Positions 2,777 to 13,815 of a stretch of DNA of 13,815 nt are shown piece after piece (the stretch's first letter is position 1; every line of letters starts with the position of its first letter). This DNA is from a virus. The stretch is from the UHGV virus genome UHGV-1810643, one strand, 5' to 3'. The position numbers and the translations under genes are program-made. The notes below the pieces were generated by a model that made no database searches, was not told the origin of the DNA, and saw only the letters and a list, made by a program, of their open reading frames with translations.

Positions 2777-2880
2777 GATTCCCTCAGATTGAGATTTTTA
2801 AACCAGAAATCGACAAACGAAATACTTAACCAGCCGTGGTTATAACCAGCGACCAGTAGCGATTTGATTTTTGATTTCAT
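2773..2880 (-). CDS. Possible 35-aa coupled mini-ORF between O-like gene and primase-helicase
   Basis: ATG at 2880..2878; stop overlaps primase-helicase start in an ATGA arrangement; weak SD; below ORF-track cutoff. Confidence 0.25.
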   Translation of the reverse strand: MKSKIKSLLVAGYNHGWLSISFVDFWFKNLNLRES

Positions 2881-2883
2881 GGT

Positions 2884-3744
2884 TCACCTGTCGAAAAACA
2901 CGTAGCCAGTTTTCGATACGGTGATTGCGGATGATGGTTTGGATTGTGGTTGAATGGTTTCTGGCTTTTCGTCGTTCCAGCGTTGACCGTTCAGGTAGCT
3001 CGATGGTAACAACCTGTCGAATCCGAACTGCTTACCATTCCTGCATGCGATGTCTTCTGCCAGCATCGTGGCAAACTCGCTTGCCGTCCCCCTGGTAGTT
3101 TTACGCCATTCCCTGAACTGTGTTCTGAATGCCGAAGCTGCGTTTTTCTTCCCGGCTTTCCGCATGCCTGCACACCAGAATATTTCCTCGAATGCCTTGT
3201 CGGTTTCTTCGTGACGGTCATGTGATTTTTCACACTCCGTCCGAACACTTTCGGACATAGTGTTTTTATTATTTCTTTTTTCTTTTGTAATAGTTTCTTT
3301 TGTGTGTCCCTGTTTTGGTGACAGCGCTGTCACCGTTTTGGTGACACTTTTTGTCACCAATGCAGTGACATTATCACCAGAGTAGTGACACCCTTCGATT
3401 TGCCATTCCTCGATGTTCTTGTTAGGCCCGATTTGCTGGCCTTCGCGAAGGATAACCTTCATCGCGATAAGCTCATTCTTGGCCTTGTTTACCTTCTGTC
3501 TTGGCAGCCTGGTAATTTGAGCTAACTGACTATCAGAGATGCGATCCATCTTTTTACCGTAGCCGTATGTTTTACGGCATATGGCGTGGGCAACCTTGCT
3601 CTGATTTTTCGTTAAATCTGCGCCGATAAGCTCTTCATACAGGGCATTTGCAAGACGGGTATAACCATCTTCAACTTCTGCCACACGACGCTCCACAGGC
3701 CGTTGTGAAGGCCTTAAATGTGTTACGGTTGCAAGATTACTCAT
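2884..3744 (-). CDS. Replication initiator, lambda O-like N-terminal DNA-binding domain with divergent C-terminal domain (286 aa)
   Basis: ORF track; N-terminal region [26 protein letters not shown]...[16 protein letters not shown] resembles lambda O as recalled; AAGGAG SD; iteron origin inside the gene. Confidence 0.85.
3263..3393. repeat. Replication origin: four GTGACA-containing iterons (3317..3393) next to an A/T-rich tract (3263..3300)
   Basis: GTGACA at 3318, 3341, 3365, 3385 with 20-24 bp spacing; perfect palindrome GGTGACAGCGCTGTCACC at 3317..3334; A/T-rich run on the side expected for an ori-lambda-type layout. Confidence 0.7.
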
Positions 3745-3917: not shown

Positions 3918-4196
3918 TCAGGCCTCGAAGAATTCGCCGTTCTTCGGGGCTTTTTCTTTTGTCAGCATTCTGGCTACTTGCTTAGCCAGTTCCGCCAACT
4001 CCTCGTCTTCAACACCCCATTCCAGCACAGCCAGAAGCATGGCCATCTTTGGGATAAAGCTGTCTTTCCATCGCGAAATTTGCGATTCATTAATCCCTAA
4101 CGCGTCGGCAACCTTTCGCTGACCACGTACAGCAATTCGATTCAGGATGTTGCTTGTAATTGCATTCGCTTTCTTGCGAGTACTTGTAAGTTGCAT
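3918..4196 (-). CDS. cII: CII-like transcriptional activator (92 aa), divergent from lambda CII
   Basis: Start set at ATG 4196..4194 because the upstream leader matches the lambda cII leader as recalled; conserved SQISRWK helix; ORF-track upstream extension rejected. Confidence 0.85.
3923..3960 (+). terminator. oop-like antisense terminator overlapping the 3' end of cII
   Basis: Plus-strand hairpin cctcgaagaa / ttcttcgggg (one mismatch), 7-nt loop, followed by ctttttctttt; antisense to cII C-terminal codons, as for lambda oop. Confidence 0.55.
4174..4187 (+). promoter_or_regulatory. pRE-like CII binding site (TTGC-N6-TTGT) inside the cII 5' coding region
   Basis: TTGC at 4174..4177 and TTGT at 4184..4187, same distance from the cII ATG as the lambda pRE TTGC repeats (recalled); oriented toward cro antisense / cI. 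Confidence 0.5.
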
Positions 4197-4275
4197 ATGT
4201 AAGTATTTCCTTAGATAACAATTGATTGAATGTATGCAAATAAATGCATACACCATAGGTGTGGTTTAATTTGAT

Positions 4276-4307
4276 GCCCTTTTTCAGGGCTGGAATGTGT
4301 AAGAGCG
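4276..4307 (-). promoter_or_regulatory. nutR (boxB and boxA)
   Basis: Minus-strand boxB GCCCTGAAAAAGGGC (4276..4290) and boxA CGCTCTTAC (4299..4307). Confidence 0.8.
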
Positions 4308-4314
4308 GGGTTAT

Positions 4315-4524
<210 letters not shown>

Positions 4525-4531
4525 TTAGTAC

Positions 4532-4599
4532 ATGCAACCATTATCACCGCCAGAGGTAAAATAGTCAACACGCACGGTGTTAGATATTTATCCCTTGCG
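4532..4599. promoter_or_regulatory. OR1-OR2-OR3 operators with divergent pR (minus) and pRM (plus)
   Basis: OR1 tatcaccgccagaggta 4532..4548; OR2 4556..4572; OR3 tatcccttgcggtgata 4579..4595; pRM -35 tagata 4571..4576 and -10 tagatt 4594..4599. Confidence 0.9.
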
Positions 4600-4612
4600 G
4601 TGATAGATTTAA

Positions 4613-5329
<717 letters not shown>

Positions 5330-5441
5330 TCGGCAAGGTGTTCTGGTCGGCGCATAGCTGATAACAATTGAGCAAGAATCTTCATCGAATTAGGGGAATT
5401 TTCACTCCCCTCAGAACATAACATAGTAAATGGATTGAATT

Positions 5442-6281
5442 ATGAAGAATGGTTTTTATGCGACTTACCGCAGCAAAAATAAAGGGAAAGATAAGCGCTC
5501 AATAAACCTGTCTGTTTTCCTTAATTCTCTGCTGGCTGATAATCATCACCTGCAGGTTGGCTCCAATTATTTGTATATTCATAAAATCGATGGAAAAACT
5601 TTTCTCTTTACCAAAACAAATGACAAGAGTCTGGTTCAGAAGATAAATCGCTCTAAAGCTTCAGTTGAAGATATTAAGAACAGCCTCGCAGATGACGAAT
5701 CATTGGGATTCCCATCTTTTTTGTTTGTTGAAGGCGACACCATTGGTTTTGCCAGAACTGTTTTCGGGCCGACCACATCCGATCTGACAGATTTTTTAAT
5801 CGGGAAAGGAATGTCATTAAGCAGTGGAGAGCGCGTTCAGATAGAGCCACTGATGAGGGGAACCACCAAAGACGATGTTATGCATATGCATTTCATCGGC
5901 CGAACAACGGTGAAGGTAGAAGCCAAGCTACCTGTATTTGGCGATATATTAAAGGTCTTAGGGGCAACAGATATTGAAGGGGAGCTTTTTGACTCATTGG
6001 ATATAGTCATTAAGCCAAAATTTAAAAGGGATATAAAAAAGGTTGCCAAGGATATTATTTTTAACCCGTCACCTCAATTTTCAGACATTAGCCTGCGGGC
6101 AAAAGATGAGGCCGGAGATATTTTAACAGAACATTATCTATCAGAAAAAGGCCATCTCTCAGCGCCTCTGAACAAGGTCACCAATGCTGAGATAGCTGAA
6201 GAGATGGCATATTGCTACGCAAGAATGAAAAGTGATATACTGGAATGTTTTAAAAGGCAGGTGGGCAAAGTTAAGGATTAA
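5442..6281 (+). CDS. rexA: RexA (279 aa)
   Basis: ORF-track protein beginning MKNGFYATYRSKNKGKDKRSINLSVF matches lambda RexA as recalled. Confidence 0.95.
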   Translation: MKNGFYATYRSKNKGKDKRSINLSVFLNSLLADNHHLQVGSNYLYIHKIDGKTFLFTKTNDKSLVQKINRSKASVEDIKNSLADDESLGFPSFLFVEGDTIGFARTVFGPTTSDLTDFLIGKGMSLSSGERVQIEPLMRGTTKDDVMHMHFIGRTTVKVEAKLPVFGDILKVLGATDIEGELFDSLDIVIKPKFKRDIKKVAKDIIFNPSPQFSDISLRAKDEAGDILTEHYLSEKGHLSAPLNKVTNAEIAEEMAYCYARMKSDILECFKRQVGKVKD

Positions 6282-6296
6282 TTATCAGGAGTAATT

Positions 6297-6731
6297 ATGC
6301 GGAACAGAATCATGCCTGGTGTTTACATAGTAATAATTCCTTACGTTATCGTAAGCATTTGCTATCTCCTTTTCCGCCACTACATTCCTGGTGTTTCTTT
6401 TTCAGCTCATAGAGATGGTCTTGGGGCGACATTGTCATCATATGCAGGAACCATGATTGCAATCCTGATTGCTGCCTTGACGTTTCTAATCGGAAGCAGA
6501 ACGCGCCGACTGGCCAAGATTAGAGAGTATGGGTATATGACATCGGTAGTTATTGTCTATGCCCTTAGTTTTGTTGAGCTTGGAGCTTTGTTTTTCTGCG
6601 GGTTATTGCTTCTTTCCAGCATAAGCGGCTACATGATACCCACTATCGCCATCGGCATTGCCTCTGCATCGTTCATTCATATATGCATCCTTGTTTTCCA
6701 ACTATATAATTTGACCAGAGAACAAGAATAA
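6297..6731 (+). CDS. rexB: RexB (144 aa), polytopic membrane protein
   Basis: ORF-track protein matches lambda RexB as recalled; several hydrophobic segments. Confidence 0.95.
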   Translation: MRNRIMPGVYIVIIPYVIVSICYLLFRHYIPGVSFSAHRDGLGATLSSYAGTMIAILIAALTFLIGSRTRRLAKIREYGYMTSVVIVYALSFVELGALFFCGLLLLSSISGYMIPTIAIGIASASFIHICILVFQLYNLTREQE

Positions 6732-6756
6732 CCCGGCCTCAGCGCCGGGTTTTCTT
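6732..6756 (+). terminator. Rho-independent terminator after rexB (tImm)
   Basis: Stem cccggc (6732..6737) / gccggg (6743..6748) followed by ttttcttt. Confidence 0.8.
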
Positions 6757-6904
6757 TGCCTCACGATCGCCCCCAAAACACATAACCAATTGTATTATTG
6801 AAAAATAAATAGATACAACTCACTAAACATAGCAATTCAGATCTCTCACCTACCAAACAATGCCCCCCCTGCAAAAAATAAATTCATATAAAAAACATAC
6901 AGAT

Positions 6905-6967
6905 AACCATCTGCGGTGATAAATTATCTCTGGCGGTGTTGACATAAATACCACTGGCGGTGATACT
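6905..6967 (+). promoter_or_regulatory. OL3-OL2-OL1 operators and pL promoter
   Basis: OL3 6905..6921, OL2 6925..6941, OL1 6949..6965; -35 ttgaca 6939..6944, -10 gatact 6962..6967. Confidence 0.9.
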
Positions 6968-7007
6968 GAGCACATCAGCAGGACGCACTGACCACCATGA
7001 AGGTGAC

Positions 7008-7037
7008 GCTCTTAAAAATTAAGCCCTGAAGAAGGGC
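7008..7037 (+). promoter_or_regulatory. nutL (boxA and boxB)
   Basis: boxA cgctcttaa 7008..7016; boxB gccctgaagaagggc 7023..7037. Confidence 0.85.
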
Positions 7038-7235
7038 AGCATTCAAAGCAGAAGGCTTTGGGATTGGATGAATGAGCAGGCTGATGCTCGACCAATGTAT
7101 AAACAGCGCTCATGGCAAGCAGTAACCAATCTGCGCCTCAAGACAGCGTCACTGGTAGTGCGGGCGCTCTAACCAGTAAGCCGGGGTTCAGCGCCGGCCA
7201 TCCAATCACCAAAGCTAACTGACAGGAGAATCCAG

Positions 7236-7562
7236 ATGGATGCACAAACACGCCGCCGCGAACGTCGCGCAGAGAAACAGGCTCAATGGAAAGCAGCAAA
7301 TCCCCTGTTGGTTGGGGTAAGCGCAAAACCAGTTAACCGCCCTATTCTCTCGCTGAATCGCAAACCGAAATCACGAGTAGAAAGCGCACTGAATCCAATA
7401 GACCTTACAGTGCTGGCTGAATACCACGAACAGATTGAAAGCAACCTGCAACGTATTGAGCGCAAGAATCAGCGCACATGGTACAGCAAGCCACGCAGTG
7501 AAATGGGGGTGACTTGTGTTGGTCGCCAGAAAATGAAATTAGGCAGCAAACCACTTATTTGA
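7236..7562 (+). CDS. N: Antiterminator N (107 aa) with variant C-terminus
   Basis: ORF-track protein MDAQTRRRERRAEKQAQWKAANPLL matches lambda N at the arginine-rich N-terminus; last ~25 residues differ from lambda N as recalled. Confidence 0.9.
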   Translation: MDAQTRRRERRAEKQAQWKAANPLLVGVSAKPVNRPILSLNRKPKSRVESALNPIDLTVLAEYHEQIESNLQRIERKNQRTWYSKPRSEMGVTCVGRQKMKLGSKPLI

Positions 7563-7570
7563 GGTGATAT

Positions 7571-7657
7571 ATGGAAGAAGAATTTGAAGAGTTCGAAGAG
7601 CATCCGCAGGATGTGATGGAACAATACCAGGACTATCCGTATGACTACGACTATTGA
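7571..7657 (+). CDS. 28-aa acidic peptide (lambda orf28-like)
   Basis: ATG at 7571 with GAGGTGA SD overlapping the N stop; translation MEEEFEEFEEHPQDVMEQYQDYPYDYDY; 17-nt overlap with ral start. Confidence 0.4.
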   Translation: MEEEFEEFEEHPQDVMEQYQDYPYDYDY

Positions 7658-7841
7658 TAAGAATCAATGGTGTGGACAATTCAAGCGATGCAATGGATGC
7701 AAGCTGCAATCGGAATGCATGGTTAAGCCTGAAGAAATGTTTCCTGTAATGGAAGATGGGAAATATGTCGATAAATGGGCAATACGAACGACGGCAATGA
7801 TTGCCAGAGAACTTGGTAAACAGAATAACAAGGCTGCCTGA
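7641..7841 (+). CDS. ral: Ral restriction-alleviation protein (66 aa)
   Basis: ORF-track protein MTTTIDKNQWCGQFKRCNGCKLQSEC matches lambda Ral as recalled. Confidence 0.85.
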   Translation: MTTTIDKNQWCGQFKRCNGCKLQSECMVKPEEMFPVMEDGKYVDKWAIRTTAMIARELGKQNNKAA

Positions 7842-7858
7842 TGGTGGCCTTTATTTTT
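7830..7858 (+). terminator. Weak hairpin plus T-run after ral (possible terminator)
   Basis: 5-bp stem aaggc / gcctt with 12-nt loop followed by tattttt; weak. Confidence 0.3.
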
Positions 7859-7977
7859 GGCATAAACAACAGAATAAACACAGCACTGTGTATTCATTCC
7901 AACGAGTGAATACACGGAGCAATGTCGCTCGTAACTAAACAGGAGCCGACTTGTTCTGATTATTGGAAATCTTCTTT

Positions 7978-8003
7978 GCCCTCCAATGTGAGGGCGATTT
8001 TTT
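7978..8003 (+). terminator. Rho-independent terminator upstream of ea10
   Basis: Perfect 6-bp stem gccctc (7978..7983) / gagggc (7990..7995), 6-nt loop, then gatttttt. Confidence 0.6.
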
Positions 8004-8023
8004 ATCTGTGAGGATATGAATAG

Positions 8024-8392
8024 ATGTCAAACATCAAAAAATACATCATTGATTACGACTGGAAAGCATCAATAGAAATTGAAATCGACCATGACGTAAT
8101 GACAGAGGAAAAACTTCACCAGATTAATAATTTCTGGTCAGACTCTGAATACCGACTCAATAAACACGGCTCTGTATTAAATGCTGTATTAATCATGCTG
8201 GCGCAACATGCTCTGCTTATAGCAATTTCAAGCGACTTAAATGCATATGGTGTTGTGTGTGAGTTCGACTGGAATGATGGAAATGGTCAGGAAGGATGGC
8301 CTCCAATGGATGGTAGCGAAGGAATAAGAATTACCGATATCGATACATCAGGAATATTTGATTCAGATGATATGACTATCAAAGCCGCCTGA
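8024..8392 (+). CDS. ea10: Ea10-like protein (122 aa)
   Basis: ORF track; size and position after ral match lambda ea10; GAGGA SD upstream. Confidence 0.75.
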   Translation: MSNIKKYIIDYDWKASIEIEIDHDVMTEEKLHQINNFWSDSEYRLNKHGSVLNAVLIMLAQHALLIAISSDLNAYGVVCEFDWNDGNGQEGWPPMDGSEGIRITDIDTSGIFDSDDMTIKAA

Positions 8393-8467
8393 GCGCGGCT
8401 TTACCGCATACCAATAATGCTTCACGAGAGGCATTTTCGTTATGCAATCAAATATAAGGAGTTACCC

Positions 8468-8602
8468 ATGATGCACTTTCAGCTCGCGGGTAGCGGCGTC
8501 ATGTCCGCTTTCTACCCGCACGAATCTGAATTATCACGCCGAATTAAACAATTAATCAGAGCAGCAAAGAAACAACTGGAGGCGTTATGCGCAATGAAAT
8601 AG
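8468..8602 (+). CDS. cIII: CIII-like protease inhibitor (44 aa), divergent from lambda CIII
   Basis: Start at ATG 8468 with AGGAG 6 nt upstream (ORF-track extension to 8417 lacks an SD); ESELSRRIKQLIRAAKKQL resembles the conserved CIII helix. Confidence 0.7.
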   Translation: MMHFQLAGSGVMSAFYPHESELSRRIKQLIRAAKKQLEALCAMK

Positions 8603-8739
8603 CCATTAATCACCAGATGCTTCGTGCTGCACAGAACAAAGCAGTAATAGCCAGATTTATTGGTGATTCCAAAATGTGGCTTGAAGCAAATAAAGCGATG
8701 AAATCAGCGATCAACATTCCGTGGTATCGCAGGAAATGA
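8587..8739 (+). CDS. Kil-like small protein (50 aa)
   Basis: ATG at 8587 with GGAGG SD; overlaps cIII end as kil does in lambda/P22; below ORF-track cutoff; assigned by position only. Confidence 0.5.
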   Translation: MRNEIAINHQMLRAAQNKAVIARFIGDSKMWLEANKAMKSAINIPWYRRK

Positions 8740-8814
8740 GTTTTACAGATAACTGGTCAGACGAAGAATTCATTCGTCAGATGAAAGATTTAATCGGTAA
8801 CGAAGGAGATATGC

Positions 8815-8985
8815 ATGTCACTTGCAACCACAGTGAAGGAGAGCAAGTTACAGAGACGCATGTACACTCAGCAGGCGTTAATGTATCGCCAGAAGGGAGA
8901 TCGTGAAGGTGTTCGCGTATTTTTAAATGCGGCAAAGACTGAAGTATTAAATCAGCGTTATTTCCTTGTGCCATGTCCATTCTGA
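8815..8985 (+). CDS. Arf-like small basic protein (56 aa) immediately upstream of erf
   Basis: ATG at 8815 with AGGAG 6 nt upstream; ends 10 nt before erf; assigned by position; alternative ORF 8736..8906 overlaps in another frame. Confidence 0.4.
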   Translation: MSLATTVKESKLQRRMYTQQALMYRQKGDREGVRVFLNAAKTEVLNQRYFLVPCPF

Positions 8986-8995
8986 GAACAAACAT

Positions 8996-9601
8996 ATGAG
9001 CAAAGAATTTTACGCAAGACTGGCAGCCATTCAGGAGAATCTGAACGCGCCAAAGAATCAGTACAACTCATTCGGTAAATATAAATACAGAAGCTGCGAA
9101 GACATTCTTGAAGGCGTTAAGCCGTTACTGAATGGCCTGTTTTTATCAATCAGCGATGAAGTTGTGTTGATTGGTGATCGGTATTACGTGAAAGCCACGG
9201 CAACTATTACCGATGGCGAAAACAGTCATACGGCAACCGCACTAGCACGAGAGGAAGAAAGCAAGAAAGGAATGGATTCTGCACAAGTTACGGGCGCTAC
9301 AAGCTCTTATGCACGCAAGTATTGCCTCAATGGTTTGTTCGGCATTGATGATGCGAAAGATGCAGATACAGACGAGCATAAACATCAGCAGAGCGCAGCA
9401 GCAAAGCAATCAAAACCATCACCTACACCTGAACAGGTTCTAAAAGCATTCACTGACGCAGCATTGCAGAAAAACACCGTGGAAGAGCTTAAACAGGCGT
9501 TCGCCAAAGCGTGGAAGATGCTCGAAGGCACACCGGAGCAGCAAAAAGCGCAGGACGTTTACAACATCAGACGAGACGAATTAGAAGGAGCGGCTGCTTA
9601 A
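8996..9601 (+). CDS. erf: Erf single-strand annealing recombinase (201 aa)
   Basis: Protein from MSKEFYARLAAIQENLNAPKNQYNSFGKYKYRSCEDILEGVKPLL matches P22 Erf as recalled; start at internal ATG 8996 rather than ORF-track 8966. Confidence 0.9.
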   Translation: MSKEFYARLAAIQENLNAPKNQYNSFGKYKYRSCEDILEGVKPLLNGLFLSISDEVVLIGDRYYVKATATITDGENSHTATALAREEESKKGMDSAQVTGATSSYARKYCLNGLFGIDDAKDADTDEHKHQQSAAAKQSKPSPTPEQVLKAFTDAALQKNTVEELKQAFAKAWKMLEGTPEQQKAQDVYNIRRDELEGAAA

Positions 9602-9984
9602 TGGCACATTCGATTACTGTAAGACTAAACAAGCCCGTAAGAGAGTTTCAGGCCGGGGAAAATATCGGATTCAACATCCGTGCTGGCGTTCAGTATTACG
9701 ATCGCCAGACAAAAAAGAAAGAATGGACAAACTACAGCGCCGTTGTATTTGCCAAGCCGGGAGCGCAAGCGGATTACTACCGTAGTGTTCTTGTTGAAGG
9801 TGGCATTGTAGAAATTACCGGAGAAAACATCAGGGTTGATGTTTATCAGGGGCAAAATGGTCAATCAATCACTCTTGAATTACTGAATGCAAAGATTGGA
9901 TTTGCAGCTTCAGGAAATGGCCCGCAGCAGCAAAGTAGTAATCATCAAAATCATCCTGAATACGACGATTCAATTCCCTTCTAA
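9601..9984 (+). CDS. Short SSB-like protein (127 aa) with C-terminal acidic DDSIPF tail
   Basis: ATG at 9601 overlapping the erf stop; OB-fold-like core; C-terminus PEYDDSIPF resembles the E. coli SSB tail DDDIPF. Confidence 0.7.
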   Translation: MAHSITVRLNKPVREFQAGENIGFNIRAGVQYYDRQTKKKEWTNYSAVVFAKPGAQADYYRSVLVEGGIVEITGENIRVDVYQGQNGQSITLELLNAKIGFAASGNGPQQQSSNHQNHPEYDDSIPF

Positions 9985-10007
9985 ATTAGCAAAATAAGGA
10001 TTCCATT

Positions 10008-10304
10008 ATGCCAGCGCCTCTGTATGGTGCGGACGACGCGCGCCGCTGTTCCGGCAATTCCGTATCGGAGGTGCTGGATAAATTCAGAAAAAACTACGAT
10101 CGGATAATGTCGCTACCGCAGGAAACGAAAGAGGAAAAGGAATTTCGCCACTGTATATGGCTTGCAGAGAAAGAAGAACGCGAGCGAATTTACCAGACAT
10201 CAATCCGACCATTCCGCAAAGCCACATATACCAACTTCCCTGAATATATCGAACCGCGCCTGCGTAATTACCGCTCACGCTATGGCGCTATCAGTAATGA
10301 CTGA
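10008..10304 (+). CDS. Abc2-like anti-RecBCD protein (98 aa), tentative
   Basis: ORF track; AAGGA SD; size and position after erf consistent with P22 abc2; identity from memory only. Confidence 0.5.
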
Positions 10305-10314
10305 GGAATTTACC

Positions 10315-10482
10315 ATGAGAGGACTTGCATACAATCCCGGCATTCTTCCGGCAGAAATGATTATTCGCCAACGCGTAAAGCCAATGCCATCGAGAGAGGA
10401 ATTGCTTAAGAGAAATTCTTTTCCATCAGTGAATCAAAACAAATATCTGAATGCGATGTGGCGCAAAGGAGGCAACCAGTGA
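10315..10482 (+). CDS. Hypothetical 55-aa protein
   Basis: ATG at 10315 with GAGGAA SD 7 nt upstream; stop overlaps the next gene's GTG start (GTGA). Confidence 0.35.
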
Positions 10483-11204
10483 GCAAGATTGATTATCAAA
10501 AGCTTCGTGAAATCGCTGAAAAAACAAAAATTGCTGGTGAAGCACCTGTAATGCCTTTCGATCAGCGAATTAATGCGCTTAACGATTTTATGAAGCACTT
10601 TTCGCCAGATATCGCGCTGGCATTGTTGGATGAACGGGAAAGAAACCAGCAATACATCAAACGCCGCGACCAGGAGAACGAGGATATTGCGCTTACGGTT
10701 GGGAGGCTGCGCGTTGAGCTGGAAGGCAAAGACAGCAAAATAGCCAATCTTACCGCCGAACGCGATGCTCTTCGTGAAGGTGAGATGGGCGACGCTAGGC
10801 ATAGCAACACACGGGCCGCAGCTGATATCTACTTCCAACTGGTCGAGGAATGCGAAATTCCTGCTGGCGGATCTCTGGTCGAGTACGTTGACGATATGCG
10901 CGAGAAGCTGGAAGCCGCAGAGAAGCGCATTGCAGAACTGGAAGCACGGGAAATAAAACCAGCCAAAGGCGAAGTTCTTGTCGTTGTTTCTGGTTTTACT
11001 GGTTGCGGAAAAAGCGCCATCGCCGGGGAAATAGAAATCGCGATGAAGGCTATTGGTGTACCGGTTCAGTGGACTAATGGCGATGTGGAAAAGCGCATGA
11101 CAGGAGCTGACTGGCTGACAGCGATTGAGATGTACAAACCAACAGTGCGCATCGTGGAAGTTAATGTGCCACGCGCCGCAGGCATTCGCATCAAAGGAGA
11201 GTGA
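10479..11204 (+). CDS. Ea22-like coiled-coil protein (241 aa) with divergent C-terminal region containing a Walker A-like motif
   Basis: GTG at 10479 with AGGAGG 6 nt upstream; [27 protein letters not shown] and terminal GIRIKGE match lambda Ea22 as recalled; body differs. Confidence 0.65.
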
Positions 11205-11406
11205 GATGAGCAGGAATACGGGTTTGTAAAAGATAACGCTTGTGAAAATGCTGAATTTCGCGTCGTCTTCACAGCGATGCCAGAGTCTGTAGTGTCAGAT
11301 GATGACCTTACTCAAACATCGGGTTGAGTATTATCTTACTGTTTCTTTACATAAACATTGCTGATACCGTTTAGCTGAAACGACATACATTGCAAGGAGT
11401 TTATAA

Positions 11407-11688
11407 ATGAGTATCAATGAGTTAGAGTCTGAGCAAAAAGATTGGGCGTTATCAATGTTGTGCAGATCCGGTGTCTTGTTTCCATGCAGACATCACGAAG
11501 GTGTTTATGTAGATGAAGGTATAGATATAGAGTCGGCATACAAATATTCCATGAAGGTTTATAAGTCTAATGAAGACAAATCCCCATTCTGCAATGTGCG
11601 AGAAATGACTGATACCGTGCAAAATTATTATCACGAGTACGGTGGAAACGATACTTGCCCTCTCTGTACAAAACATATAGATGATTAA
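11407..11688 (+). CDS. ea8.5: Ea8.5-like protein (93 aa), Cys/His-rich
   Basis: ORF track; AAGGAG 7 nt upstream; size and position match lambda ea8.5; C..C / C..C / HH pattern. Confidence 0.75.
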   Translation: MSINELESEQKDWALSMLCRSGVLFPCRHHEGVYVDEGIDIESAYKYSMKVYKSNEDKSPFCNVREMTDTVQNYYHEYGGNDTCPLCTKHIDD

Positions 11689-11705
11689 ACCAAATATTAC
11701 ATAAC

Positions 11706-11763
11706 AATCCTCGCACTCGCGGGGATTTCTTTTATCTGAACTCGCTACGGCGAGTTTTGTTTT
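11706..11763 (+). terminator. Tandem rho-independent terminators after ea8.5
   Basis: Hairpin aatcctcgc..gcggggatt then tctttt (11706..11734); perfect 7-bp stem aactcgc/gcgagtt, loop tacg, then ttgtttt (11739..11763). Confidence 0.6.
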
Positions 11764-11776
11764 ATGGAGATGATAA

Positions 11777-11944
11777 ATGCACTTCCGAGTCACAGGTGAA
11801 TGGAATGGAGAGTCATTCGACAGGGTTATCGAAGCAGAGGACATCAACGACTGCTATAACCACTGGATGATATGGGCGCAGATAGCGCATGCAGACGTAA
11901 CCAATATTCGAATTGAAGAACTGAAAGAACACCAAACCGCCTGA
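11777..11944 (+). CDS. Hypothetical 55-aa protein (matches the unnamed lambda ORF between ea8.5 and xis as recalled)
   Basis: ATG at 11777 with GGAG 7 nt upstream; below ORF-track cutoff. Confidence 0.5.
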   Translation: MHFRVTGEWNGESFDRVIEAEDINDCYNHWMIWAQIAHADVTNIRIEELKEHQTA

Positions 11945-11957
11945 TGGCGGTTTTTTA
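11937..11957 (+). terminator. Terminator hairpin overlapping the stop of the 55-aa ORF
   Basis: Stem ccgcc (11937..11941) / ggcgg (11946..11950), loop tgat, then tttttt. Confidence 0.55.
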
Positions 11958-11970
11958 TTGGAGACAAGAA

Positions 11971-12315
11971 ATGTCAGATTTGGCTATGAAGGTTTTGAAA
12001 TGGCAATCGACTGGCGATGTCGGCATCAGTAGCGCAACTCTTGCCTCAATCGCATGTGGACTGAAAAAGAATATCTATGGTCATCACTTCGGCGCTCCAC
12101 ATGACGCAGCCGATTTCCGACGATGCGTTGCACTGGTTGAGCAGATCCCAGAAATCAGAGATTCATTCGACAAGGTTGCAAAGCGCGTTCCGGCATTCAA
12201 AGGCATCCTCACCGAATGGGATTCCCTCGTTGCTCTGTTGAAGTCTGAAATGAAGATACACGGAAACAAAGCACCAGAGACTTACAGAAGAATTAGCGAG
12301 TTACGCAAGGACTAA
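11971..12315 (+). CDS. Hypothetical protein (114 aa) inserted between the 55-aa ORF and xis
   Basis: ATG at 11971 with GGAGA SD (ORF-track start 11944 lacks an SD); no similarity recognised; no counterpart in lambda as recalled. Confidence 0.6.
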   Translation: MSDLAMKVLKWQSTGDVGISSATLASIACGLKKNIYGHHFGAPHDAADFRRCVALVEQIPEIRDSFDKVAKRVPAFKGILTEWDSLVALLKSEMKIHGNKAPETYRRISELRKD

Positions 12316-12373
12316 CCACAGCCTCACACTCGATGAGGCCCGTTCATTTCTCAAGATATCCAGACCTACCATT

Positions 12374-12396
12374 GCCGCATCAATGCGGCTTTTCTT
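12374..12396 (+). terminator. Terminator-like hairpin upstream of xis
   Basis: Stem gccgca (12374..12379) / tgcggc (12384..12389), loop tcaa, then ttttctt. Confidence 0.5.
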
Positions 12397-12408
12397 GCGT
12401 GTAATTGC
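12395..12408 (+). promoter_or_regulatory. pI-type CII binding site (TTGC-N6-TTGC) upstream of / overlapping xis start
   Basis: ttgc 12395..12398, six nt, ttgc 12405..12408, as in lambda pI. Confidence 0.5.
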
Positions 12409-12420
12409 GGAGACTTTGCG

Positions 12421-12639
12421 ATGTACTTGACACTTCAGGAGTGGAACGCACGCCAGCGACGCCCAAGAAGCCTTGAAACAGTTCGTCGATGGGTGCGCGA
12501 ATGCAGGATATTCCCTCCTCCGGTTAAGGATGGAAGAGAGTATCTGTTCCACGAATCAGCGGTAAAGGTTGACTTAAATCGACCAGTAACAGGTAGCCTT
12601 TTGAAGAGGATCAGAAATGGGAAGAAGGCGAAGTCATGA
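12421..12639 (+). CDS. xis: Excisionase Xis (72 aa)
   Basis: ORF-track protein MYLTLQEWNARQRRPRSLETVRRWVRECRIFPPPVKDGREYLFHESAVKVDLNRPVTGSLLKRIRNGKKAKS matches lambda Xis as recalled. Confidence 0.95.
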   Translation: MYLTLQEWNARQRRPRSLETVRRWVRECRIFPPPVKDGREYLFHESAVKVDLNRPVTGSLLKRIRNGKKAKS

Positions 12640-13687
12640 GCGCCGGGATTTACCCCCTAACCTTTATATAAGAAACAATGGATATTACTGCTACAGGGAC
12701 CCAAGGACGGGTAAAGAGTTTGGATTAGGCCGAGACAGGAGGATAGCAATCACTGAAGCTATACAGGCCAACATTGAGTTATTTTCAGGACACAAACACA
12801 AGCCTCTGACAGCGAGAATCAACAGTGATAATTCTGTTACGTTACATTCATGGCTTGATCGCTACGAAAAAATCCTCGCCAGCAGAGGAATCAAGCAGAA
12901 GACACTCATAAATTACATGAGCAAAATTAAAGCAATAAGGAGGGGCCTGCCTGATGCTCCACTTGAAGACATCACCACAAAAGAAATTGCAGCAATGCTC
13001 AATGGATACATAGACGAGGGCAAGGCGGCGTCAGCCAAGTTAATCAGATCAACACTGAGCGATGCATTCCGAGAGGCAATAGCTGAAGGCCATATAACAA
13101 CAAACCCGGTCGCTGCCACTCGCGCAGCAAAATCAGAGGTAAGGAGATCAAGACTTACGGCTGACGAATACCTGAAAATTTATCAAGCAGCAGAATCATC
13201 ACCATGTTGGCTCAGACTTGCAATGGAACTGGCTGTTGTTACCGGGCAGCGAGTTGGGGATTTATGCGAAATGAAGTGGTCTGATATCGTAGATGGATAT
13301 CTTTATGTCGAGCAAAGCAAAACAGGCGTAAAAATTGCCATCCCTACAACATTGCATGTTGATGCTCTCGGGATATCAATGAAGGAAACACTTGATAAAT
13401 GCAAAGAGATTCTTGGCGGAGAAACCATAATTGCATCTACTCGTCGTGAACCGCTTTCATCCGGCACAGTATCAAGGTATTTTATGCGCGCACGAAAAGC
13501 ATCAGGTCTTTCCTTCGAAGGGGATCCGCCTACCTTTCACGAGTTGCGCAGTTTGTCTGCAAGACTCTATGAGAAGCAGATAAGCGATAAGTTTGCTCAA
13601 CATCTTCTCGGGCATAAGTCGGACACCATGGCATCACAGTATCGTGATGACAGAGGCAGGGAGTGGGACAAAATTGAAATCAAATAA
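12617..13687 (+). CDS. int: Tyrosine integrase Int (356 aa)
   Basis: ORF-track protein matches lambda Int as recalled; 23-nt overlap with xis as in lambda. Confidence 0.97.
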   Translation: MGRRRSHERRDLPPNLYIRNNGYYCYRDPRTGKEFGLGRDRRIAITEAIQANIELFSGHKHKPLTARINSDNSVTLHSWLDRYEKILASRGIKQKTLINYMSKIKAIRRGLPDAPLEDITTKEIAAMLNGYIDEGKAASAKLIRSTLSDAFREAIAEGHITTNPVAATRAAKSEVRRSRLTADEYLKIYQAAESSPCWLRLAMELAVVTGQRVGDLCEMKWSDIVDGYLYVEQSKTGVKIAIPTTLHVDALGISMKETLDKCKEILGGETIIASTRREPLSSGTVSRYFMRARKASGLSFEGDPPTFHELRSLSARLYEKQISDKFAQHLLGHKSDTMASQYRDDRGREWDKIEIK

Positions 13688-13696
13688 TGATTTTAT

Positions 13697-13815
13697 TTTG
13701 ACTGATAGTGACCTGTTCGTTACAACAAATTGATAAGCAATGCTTTTTTATAATGCCAACTTAGTATAAAAAAGCAGGCTTCAACGGATTCATTTTTCTA
13801 TTTCATAGCCCGGAG
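13697..13815. other. attP: P' arm with arm-type Int sites and IHF H' site, 15-bp core (13761..13775), start of P arm truncated by window end
   Basis: Core ttagtataaaaaagc is the reverse complement of the lambda att core GCTTTTTTATACTAA; arm-type repeats in tgactgatagtgacctg (13700..13716); IHF-like TATCAATTTGTTG on the minus strand; core centre about 81 bp from the int stop. Confidence 0.85.

Follow-up and report, generated by a model that had tools for sequence, protein, structure and literature searches.

A recombination module common to phages HK97, HK022 and HK106, in which cIII, kil, gp42, erf, gp40, abc2 and gp38 follow one another, was reported by Juhala et al. 2000, as cited in PMC3784561. 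Its Rec functions comprise an anti-RecBCD protein (Abc2), an SSB and the strand-annealing protein Erf (Genome Res 2025, PMC12315714); the SSB, HK97 gp40, belongs to a type that the same paper names SSB-1b and describes as experimentally unstudied. Phage P22 has a set of genes at the same operon position (c3-kil-arf-erf-abc1-abc2-orf56), with abc1 and no SSB gene between erf and abc2. In the pL operon of lambda, the corresponding interval, from cIII/kil to ea22, is occupied by the Red genes exo, bet and gam, which fill the same overall role of phage-encoded homologous recombination and RecBCD neutralization.

We analysed a 13,815-nucleotide stretch of the virus genome UHGV-1810643, referred to here as the window, and report the gene identities, boundaries, synteny, intactness and prevalence of one block within it. 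The block is very probably an intact HK97/HK022-type pL segment of a mosaic lambdoid prophage of E. coli, with a core of erf, ssb and abc2 that would do the job of exo, bet and gam by a different route (Table 1). By blastn, the lambda-like segments of the window are 4194-7062 (99.9% identity), 7207-7537, 7546-8444 (97.8%; N, ral and ea10), 11177-11960 and 12390-13775. Between 8445 and 11176, the sole lambda match was a conserved ea22 motif of 126 bp (10616-10741, 86.5%). The exchanged block thus measures about 2.7 kb, with lambda-like DNA ending at 8444 and returning at about 11177-11183; an earlier note on this DNA, which placed the limits at 8450-11180, was right to within a few bases. The lambda-like flanks it proposed are also borne out, as Ea10 upstream is 100% identical to its lambda counterpart and lambda identity resumes downstream at the last eight codons of ea22 (AGIRIKGE*). 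Both junctions lie on sequence shared between the parents. On the left, lambda is followed to ...TTTTCGTTATG (8444) and HK97/HK106 from there into the Shine-Dalgarno sequence and start of cIII. In the stem of the terminator-like hairpin at this junction, which probably corresponds to lambda tL1, a C-G pair of lambda, HK97 and HK106 is replaced by T-A through a compensatory change. The block was probably joined to its lambda-type neighbours by recombination at such short shared sequences, namely the hairpin 5′ of cIII on one side and, on the other, the conserved 3′ end of ea22/ead. In a promoter and terminator scan, promoters within the block were not in excess (2 against 6.2 expected), consistent with read-through transcription from pL, and the whole window had no Rfam matches at the gathering threshold.

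Table 1. Features of the exchanged block and its left junction, in window coordinates.
Feature	Coordinates	Strand	Evidence and remarks
Terminator-like hairpin (tL1-like)	8416..8435	+	Common to lambda, HK97 and HK106; inside the 39-bp shared segment 8406-8444 that forms the left junction
cIII (44 aa), HK97 allele	8468..8602	+	Pfam PF08134, 3e-30 (104.1 bits; cutoff 25)
kil (50 aa), lambda Kil family, HK97 allele	8587..8739	+	Pfam PF06301, 1.7e-20 (72.6 bits; cutoff 27.6)
orfA (56 aa, acidic, pI 4.55)	8736..8906	+	PHROG 2123, 1e-38; P22 arf slot
orfB (56 aa, basic, pI 10.1)	8815..8985	+	PHROG 1723, 7e-33; +1 frame relative to orfA; own AAGGAG Shine-Dalgarno
erf (201 aa), single-strand annealing protein	8996..9601	+	Pfam PF04404, 4e-44 (150.7 bits; cutoff 25)
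Short divergent SSB (127 aa), HK97 gp40 family	9601..9984	+	PHROG 44 (SSB), 2.8e-27; OB domain, short Q-rich linker, DDSIPF tip
abc2 (98 aa), anti-RecBCD protein 2	10008..10304	+	Pfam PF11043, 1.9e-60 (201.5 bits; cutoff 25)
DUF2737 gene (55 aa), homologue of P22 orf56 / HK97 gp38	10315..10482	+	Pfam PF10930, 4.8e-31
Ead/Ea22-like gene (241 aa), mosaic	10479..11204	+	Pfam PF13935, 2e-18; only the last 8 codons lambda-like (right junction)

The first 2 kb or so of the block (8406-10463) is 94.6-95.4% identical in DNA sequence to HK97/HK106 and about 95% identical to HK022, with the same genes in the same order. Seven of the proteins encoded from cIII through the DUF2737 gene are 92-98.5% identical to their HK97 counterparts: cIII and Kil at 98% (97.7% for cIII), Erf at 98.5%, and gp40, Abc2 and gp38 at 92% are among them. 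The exception is orfB, which shares only 54% identity with the C-terminal part of HK97 gp42. In gene content, order and close identity, the block agrees with the HK97-type Rec module as defined in PMC12315714. It differs from HK97 in its neighbours, with lambda N, ral and ea10 upstream and another Ea22-type gene downstream, and in two alleles. In the HK97 reference, gp42 is a fused protein of 83 aa and the SSB tip is altered to DDSNPILI, each form being found in one of 81 loci, whereas the window has the common form with separate orfA and orfB, and an intact DDSIPF.

Neither this block nor the P22 region contains a phage exonuclease gene, but at the DNA level the likeness to P22 is confined to erf, abc2 and the DUF2737 gene, whose products are 74% (over 205 columns), 91% and 78% identical to P22 Erf, Abc2 and orf56. 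P22 has an unrelated Kil, cIII reaches just 42% identity to C3 (over 36 aa), a motif of 16 residues is all that links orfA to Arf, and the Erf tail has diverged strongly. The window has an SSB gene in the place of abc1; tblastn detected P22 Abc1 neither in the window nor in 80 related loci, and we saw abc1 only in three loci with 100% P22 Erf. The earlier note called this a P22-like set, which is apt for Erf, Abc2 and the DUF2737 protein; HK97/HK022-type is the better label because of the DNA match of about 95%, the SSB gene in place of abc1 and the lambda-family Kil. Its gene list likewise needs extending: it omitted orfB and the DUF2737 gene, as well as nearly the whole Ea22-like gene, which lies inside the block, overlaps the DUF2737 gene start to stop (ATGA) and is 95% identical to HK106 over 10616-10945.

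Lambda Exo, Bet and Gam were absent, as had been claimed, from the window and from the 80 related loci (tblastn, E<=1e-3), and an Erf-type module stands in the lambda Red position, without a phage exonuclease and with an added phage SSB. The phage is, however, a mosaic lambdoid phage and not a lambda that has lost Red. The same phage also occurs in strain B1.H1.18, at 99.6% identity, as a circular element of 39.9 kb that carries all virion genes; the phage combines P22-like virion genes with lambda immunity and integrase. The replacement of lambda Red, as the earlier note put it, is therefore only a frame of reference.

For cIII, Kil, Erf, Abc2, the DUF2737 protein and the Ead/Ea22-like protein, the Pfam matches lie well beyond the curated cutoffs. 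The block begins with cIII, preceded by AAGGAG 7 nt 5′ of its ATG, and kil, whose product is 54% identical to lambda Kil and gave no match to P22 Kil. As an FtsH inhibitor favouring lysogeny and a cell-division inhibitor, respectively, cIII and Kil would travel with the module while standing outside recombination. The start of orfA overlaps the kil stop codon (ATGA). This gene had been described as arf-like, which holds for its slot and character, since both orfA and Arf (47 aa, pI 4.05) are small acidic proteins encoded between kil and erf. Their sequence kinship is weak: the two have in common an N-terminal (F/W)SDEEFI motif, the match to PHROG 2445 (Arf) has an E-value of 0.009 with no stretch passing alone, hhalign aligns 16 columns (P=8e-4, probability 25%) and blastp gives E=0.1-0.17. 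The downstream orfB shows no similarity to P22 Arf. Closely related erf genes are preceded by one of two alternative cassettes, either P22-type arf or orfA with orfB. NCBIfam added nothing for the small proteins of the block. We found orfB in 80 of the 81 loci, with its reading frame kept in both alleles, and it is annotated as a CDS in the RefSeq record of strain KE40. A programmed frameshift from orfA into orfB, at which the fused HK97 gp42 hints, found no support, given the strong Shine-Dalgarno sequence and ATG of orfB and the rarity of the fused form (1/81 loci). Both products are probably accessory factors, with orfA possibly an analogue of Arf.

Erf and Abc2 are homologues of their P22 namesakes, as the earlier note had it. 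The window Abc2 aligns end to end with P22 Abc2 as solved on RecBCD (residues 1-98 to 1-97, at E=5e-55 against PDB 8B1T chain A). It conserves Pro68, in the context IRPFRK in both proteins; this residue is proposed to enter the active site of PpiB (PMC9836394). From the 91% identity, we infer that the window Abc2 would bind RecC and cause RecBCD to lose its Chi response. All biochemical steps proposed here are similarly read across from P22 and lambda homologues that have been studied. Abc2 would bind the RecC subunit and reprogramme the host RecBCD, which would then ignore Chi and provide a resected 3′ single strand, so that a phage exonuclease would be needless and linear phage DNA would be spared. 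The phage SSB would coat this strand and, by way of its host-like DDSIPF tip, could make contact with the proteins for which the SSB tail is a docking site. Erf, a ring protein of the Rad52 superfamily, would anneal the strand to a complementary partner. P22 recombination requires Abc1 and Arf for full activity. With no Abc1 and only a weak relationship to Arf in the window, the P22 mechanism may therefore not transfer unchanged.

Alternatively, Abc2 could be a plain RecBCD inhibitor standing in for Gam, with resection for Erf left to other nucleases of the host, for example RecJ with RecQ, which the SSB tip may recruit. In E. coli SSB, the corresponding tip is where RecQ, RecJ and ExoI dock, and the phage SSB carries DDSIPF. 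Abc2 has also been grouped with Gam among anti-RecBCD proteins (PMC12315714, PMC3784561), and the loading of Erf by RecBCD-Abc2 is only a model proposal within the hijack scheme of the structural paper (PMC9836394). However, according to the P22 work summarized in that paper, Abc2 leaves RecBCD active, with its Chi response lost and a 5′-strand nuclease activity gained, and its contact is with RecC and not with the DNA entry site, a mode likely to hold for a protein so close to that of P22. We thus consider plain inhibition unlikely and favour reprogramming. Here the system would differ from lambda Red, in that RecBCD is modified via RecC and not blocked where DNA enters, and this would explain why the module has no exonuclease. 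The earlier suggestion that Abc2 may cover the anti-RecBCD role of Gam accordingly needs qualifying: an anti-RecBCD gene does lie at the exo/bet/gam position, but the literature describes reprogramming and not a simple Gam substitute. Phages with Abc2 avoid Chi (PMC3784561); the window contains no Chi octamers, a count that says nothing on avoidance because only 0.28 are expected by chance in 13.8 kb.

The gene between erf and abc2, which overlaps erf by one base, had been called a short SSB. The protein had no Pfam match at E<=0.01, scored 15.2 bits against TIGR00621 (cutoff 53.95), and found an SSB as its best match among PDB sequences with a marginal E-value of 0.087. Because this sequence evidence was marginal, we turned to a family alignment, structure prediction and a fold search. 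The family has a conserved core, a variable linker rich in Q, P and G, and a DDxIPF tip, with P126 and F127 kept in at least 90% of sequences; across the 81 loci the tip reads DDSIPF in 77 and EDSIPF in one, and so counts as intact in 78. The AlphaFold2 model has a mean pLDDT of 83.5, exceeding 90 over residues 1-100 and falling below 50 at 107-121. In a Foldseek search of the PDB, all 32 matches at E<=0.001 were bacterial or mitochondrial SSBs or PriB, with probability 1.00 and modest TM-scores of 0.36-0.55. The model supports a predicted SSB-type OB fold, and together with the PHROG 44 match and the conserved tip it upholds the SSB call.

It could be argued that the protein is not a general SSB but another OB-fold factor, such as a loader dedicated to Erf or, like PriB, an adaptor for the primosome or for restart. 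It falls below the curated family thresholds cited above, PriB appears among its structural matches at ranks 18 and 39, and its identity to known SSBs is low, at 9-18% to PDB SSB chains in the Foldseek alignments and about 30% to E. coli SSB in a weak BLASTP alignment (E=0.002). Against this, true SSBs are the strongest structural matches, PHROG 44 is hit at a highly significant E-value, and an OB core followed by a low-complexity linker and a DDxIPF tip is the hallmark of an SSB; PriB is not known to have this three-part architecture. Sister modules, moreover, hold a canonical SSB, 61-74% identical to that of E. coli, in the same slot. We therefore regard a role other than that of an SSB as quite improbable.

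Erf follows P22 Erf closely over residues 1-128 (92% identity) and much less over the C-terminal remainder (47%), with the last 45 or so residues strongly diverged. From the N-terminal identity, it would form a ring oligomer that binds single-stranded DNA and anneals complementary strands. The tail pattern ...ELKQAFAKAWKMLEG.T.EQQKAQDVYNIRKDELEG occurred in all 13 examined Erfs with an SSB gene next downstream, whether SSB-1b or canonical, including those of mEp554 and of a Vibrio phage. In the Vibrio phage, erf is likewise followed by an SSB-1b gene (55% and 48% protein identity), and the pattern is kept in diverged form. The tail of P22 Erf, whose gene precedes abc1, is strongly diverged. 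In three natural recombinants (L091-L093), Erf is 98% identical to P22 over residues 1-128 and P22-like through the linker, and changes to the SSB-type tail exactly at PEQVLKAF, with SSB-1b encoded downstream. We had also entertained an Erf C-terminal region unrelated to that of P22 and swapped in with the SSB gene; this was rejected, as the two proteins can be aligned over their full length and their tails, though diverged, are homologous. Tentatively, the last 45 or so residues may be a partner-specific adaptor inherited with the gene immediately downstream, a possibility we hold with considerable doubt: with a single independent P22-type lineage in the data, this amounts to essentially one independent contrast, for which physical linkage could suffice. 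Lambda Beta protein has been reported to bind SSB, and by analogy the Erf tail could dock the phage SSB, with the P22 version re-tuned to Abc1.

The module is present at 80% coverage or more in 517 of 5,426 complete E. coli genomes, about a tenth. Among the 81 loci, orfB, erf, ssb, abc2 and the DUF2737 gene were each found in 79-81, and orfA in 77, at 80% query coverage or more. Each of the nine ORFs of the block is intact and has the full length of its homologues, and the host phage is likely functional. That the module is instead an inactive remnant of a decaying prophage, its genes no longer working together, is very unlikely: lambdoid prophages in E. coli genomes are mostly defective in some measure and the HK97 reference shows apparent frame changes in gp42 and the gp40 tip, but the window retains its ORFs, its start-stop overlaps (ATGA at kil/orfA and DUF2737/ea22, one base at erf/ssb) and an SSB tip that is widely conserved, and the same phage, as the circular element, has all virion genes.

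The Erf-SSB-Abc2 module is a common arrangement that has already been described, and the literature also covers how lambdoid phages exchange it with lambda Red and how HK97 gp40 resembles an SSB. The block illustrates cleanly how modules are exchanged at short linker sequences that the partners share. With an intact SSB tip and separate orfA and orfB, its alleles are more representative than those of the HK97 reference, and as a set they would be useful for tests of Erf, SSB and Abc2 function or for recombineering.

The window carries the early-left (pL) operon on its + strand, and there, between lambda-like flanks, we found the Erf-type recombination module proposed in an earlier note, an interpretation that is supported here with corrections to its type, to the role of Abc2 and to arf. 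Neither the window nor 80 related loci gave a tblastn match to lambda Exo, Bet or Gam or to P22 Abc1. On sequence comparison, the block is of the HK97/HK022/HK106 type, and annotated records of these three phages have exactly the same gene order. Its cIII and Kil proteins are each 98% identical to those of HK97, Erf is 98.5% identical, and the SSB (HK97 gp40), Abc2 and the DUF2737 protein (HK97 gp38) are each 92% identical. The corresponding values for P22 are 42% for C3 (over 36 aa), 74% for Erf, 91% for Abc2 and 78% for orf56, whereas P22 Kil has no match to the block Kil, which is instead 54% identical to lambda Kil. The slot between erf and abc2 holds abc1 in P22 but the SSB gene, which has no P22 counterpart, in the block, and DNA-level matches to P22 are confined to erf codons 1 to ~154 and to abc2 plus orf56. 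The initial description of a P22-like set thus holds for the homology of Erf and Abc2, but the type is that of HK97/HK022.

Lambda-like segments (from blastn of the window against lambda) and genes of the block
Feature	Coordinates	Identity or family match
Lambda-like DNA	4194-7062	99.9%
Lambda-like DNA	7207-7537	94%
Lambda-like DNA	7546-8444	97.8%
cIII	8468-8602	PF08134, 3e-30
kil	8587-8739	PF06301, 1.7e-20
orfA	8736-8906	PHROG 2123
orfB	8815-8985	PHROG 1723
erf	8996-9601	PF04404, 4e-44
SSB-like, 127 aa	9601-9984	PHROG 44, 2.8e-27
abc2	10008-10304	PF11043, 1.9e-60
DUF2737 gene	10315-10482	PF10930, 4.8e-31
Ead/Ea22-like gene	10479-11204	PF13935, 2e-18
Lambda-like DNA	11177-11960	96.3%
Lambda-like DNA	12390-13775	98.3%

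Between 8445 and 11176, blastn gave no lambda match except a 126-bp conserved ea22 motif, and 8406-10463 is 94.6% identical to HK97 and 95.4% to HK106 (blastn). The left junction is a 39-bp segment, 8406-8444, common to lambda, HK97 and HK106; beyond TTTTCGTTATG the lambda match stops, and HK97/HK106 sequence continues into the AAGGAG and ATG of cIII. Inside this segment is a terminator-like hairpin (8416-8435), presumably at the position of lambda tL1, whose stem has a T-A pair in the window and a C-G pair in lambda, HK97 and HK106, two compensatory substitutions that leave the stem paired. The right junction falls where the ea22-type gene ends, in eight codons (AGIRIKGE, stop) common to lambda Ea22 and present in diverged form in P22 EaD. 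With an Ea10 that is 100% identical to that of lambda, the segments and both junctions bear out the extent first assigned to the block, 8450-11180, and its flanks of lambda-like ea10 and lambda-like last ea22 codons. Relative to HK97 and HK106, which join the equivalent of 8008 straight to 8406, ea10 (8024-8392) is an inserted cassette (8009-8405) with a terminator-like hairpin on either side (7976-7997, 8416-8435). In a scan of the window and 80 Erf loci, only 8 of the 81 sequences had it.

The short SSB of the earlier reading is likewise supported, and had previously been published: HK97 gp40 was named "SSB-1b" from its predicted structure in a 2025 survey of lambdoid recombination modules and is experimentally unstudied (PMC12315714). 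Among curated SSB models, the 127-aa protein has no Pfam match and scores 15 bits against the 54-bit cutoff of TIGR00621, and its best PDB sequence match has E=0.087. A homologue search returned 312 relatives, and in an alignment of 41 sequences a core of ~100 residues and a DDxIPF tip are conserved, while the Q/P/G-rich linker between them varies greatly in length. The AlphaFold2 model made from this alignment (pLDDT 83.5 overall, >90 in the core, residues 107-121 disordered) has an OB-type barrel with one helix, and all 32 Foldseek matches in the PDB at E<=0.001 were bacterial or mitochondrial SSBs or PriB. The tip (9964-9984) reads DDSIPF in 77 of 81 loci and EDSIPF in one, close to the DDDIPF of E. 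coli SSB; the HK97 reference is atypical, lacking the canonical tip and ending in DDSNPILI (1/81), apparently by a local frame change.

The tail of Erf (residues ~150-201; 9440-9601) covaries with the downstream gene, also in loci L086, L087, L088 and L091-L093. Among the Erf relatives surveyed, that gene encodes SSB-1b, a canonical SSB with 61-74% identity to the E. coli protein or, in true P22 only, Abc1. All SSB-linked Erfs surveyed share one tail pattern, a diverged version occurring even in a Vibrio phage, whereas the abc1-linked tail of P22 Erf is strongly diverged. Three natural recombinants, L091-L093, switch from P22-like to HK97-like sequence within erf, at PEQVLKAF. With one independent contrast, the tail may be partner-specific or merely linked with its downstream gene.

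Two small ORFs occupy the interval between kil and erf, where an arf-like gene had been proposed. orfA starts at the kil stop and is acidic (pI 4.55), and shares an (F/W)SDEEFI motif with P22 Arf (pI 4.05), but the similarity to PHROG Arf is weak (E=0.009; hhalign, 16 columns, P=8e-4, probability 25%). orfB, which is basic and is read in the +1 frame, has an AAGGAG Shine-Dalgarno sequence of its own and keeps its frame in both allele types among related loci. The orfA/orfB slot 5' of a closely related erf is filled in sister modules by a P22-type arf (85-91% identity), which supports positional equivalence of orfA and arf, although sharing a slot is not proof of homology. The two ORFs (8736-8985) are separate and overlapping in 77 of 81 loci; HK97 gp42 (83 aa; 2831-3082 of its locus), which fuses the N-terminal part of orfA to the C-terminal part of orfB, is the exception (1/81).

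The E. coli strain KE40 chromosome matches the entire window (99.9% identity), as the left arm of a prophage whose end adjoins ybhC, a neighbourhood that we take to be the lambda attachment region. Two 39.9-kb circular records tagged "plasmid", NZ_CP146561.1 (1-39940) and NZ_CP146567.1, represent the whole genome of the same phage (99.6% identity); their cI is frameshifted, which may be why they were assembled as free circles. Because they combine a full P22-like virion set (P22-type major capsid, gp4, gp10, DNA-transfer proteins, tailspike) with lambda-type cI/rexA/rexB/N/cro/cII and int/xis, the phage is, on its gene content, a mosaic lambdoid phage and not a lambda derivative. Replacement of lambda exo/bet/gam is therefore apt as a frame of reference but not as history. 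The N gene leader looks like a mosaic piece in its own right: from the nutL region to the start of N, ~145 bp (7062-7207) are not lambda-like by blastn, with flanks 99.9% and 94% identical to lambda. Further right, 11961-12389 has no lambda match (blastn) and contains, between lambda-like orf55 and xis, a 114-aa ORF (11971-12315; 123 aa from an upstream ATG) with no Pfam family. A Walker-A-like motif, GFTGCGKS, occurs in residues ~165-241 of the Ead/Ea22-like protein (10968-11204), a segment shorter than a complete NTPase domain would need; its family matches are limited to P-loop kinases below threshold (APS kinase scores 16.4 bits, cutoff 21.1).

Of 5,426 complete E. coli genomes, 517 have the 2-kb core (8445-10482) at >=80% coverage; the ea10/HK97-type cIII junction occurs in 78 of these 517, and 530 phage records match the region. 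The Erf/SSB/Abc2 module is already known, and Erf/Abc2 modules are one standard lambdoid alternative to Red/Gam (Bobay et al. 2013; PMC12315714).

Abc2 is 91% identical, end to end and including Pro68, to P22 Abc2, whose structure on RecBCD has been solved. In the summary of structural work and earlier work by Murphy given in PMC9836394, P22 Abc2 sits on RecC close to the Chi-recognition latch, and RecBCD loses its Chi response, acting as if constitutively activated, with increased nuclease activity on the 5' strand; loading of Erf in place of RecA by Abc2-bound RecBCD is put forward there as a proposal only. The abc2-like gene had been suggested to cover the anti-RecBCD role of Gam; the homology holds, but Abc2 reprogrammes RecBCD and does not block it (PMC9836394). 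In the most likely mechanism, each biochemical step of which is inferred from homology, Abc2 on RecC would abolish the Chi response, and the reprogrammed RecBCD would load Erf instead of RecA. The phage SSB would coat single-stranded DNA, its host-like tip giving it access to SSB-tail-binding proteins, and Erf would anneal complementary strands, with cIII and Kil, whose functions are known in lambda, as passengers. Reprogramming of RecBCD by Abc2 would thereby explain why modules of this type have no exonuclease, and abc2 alone would replace both the resection by Exo and the protection by Gam.
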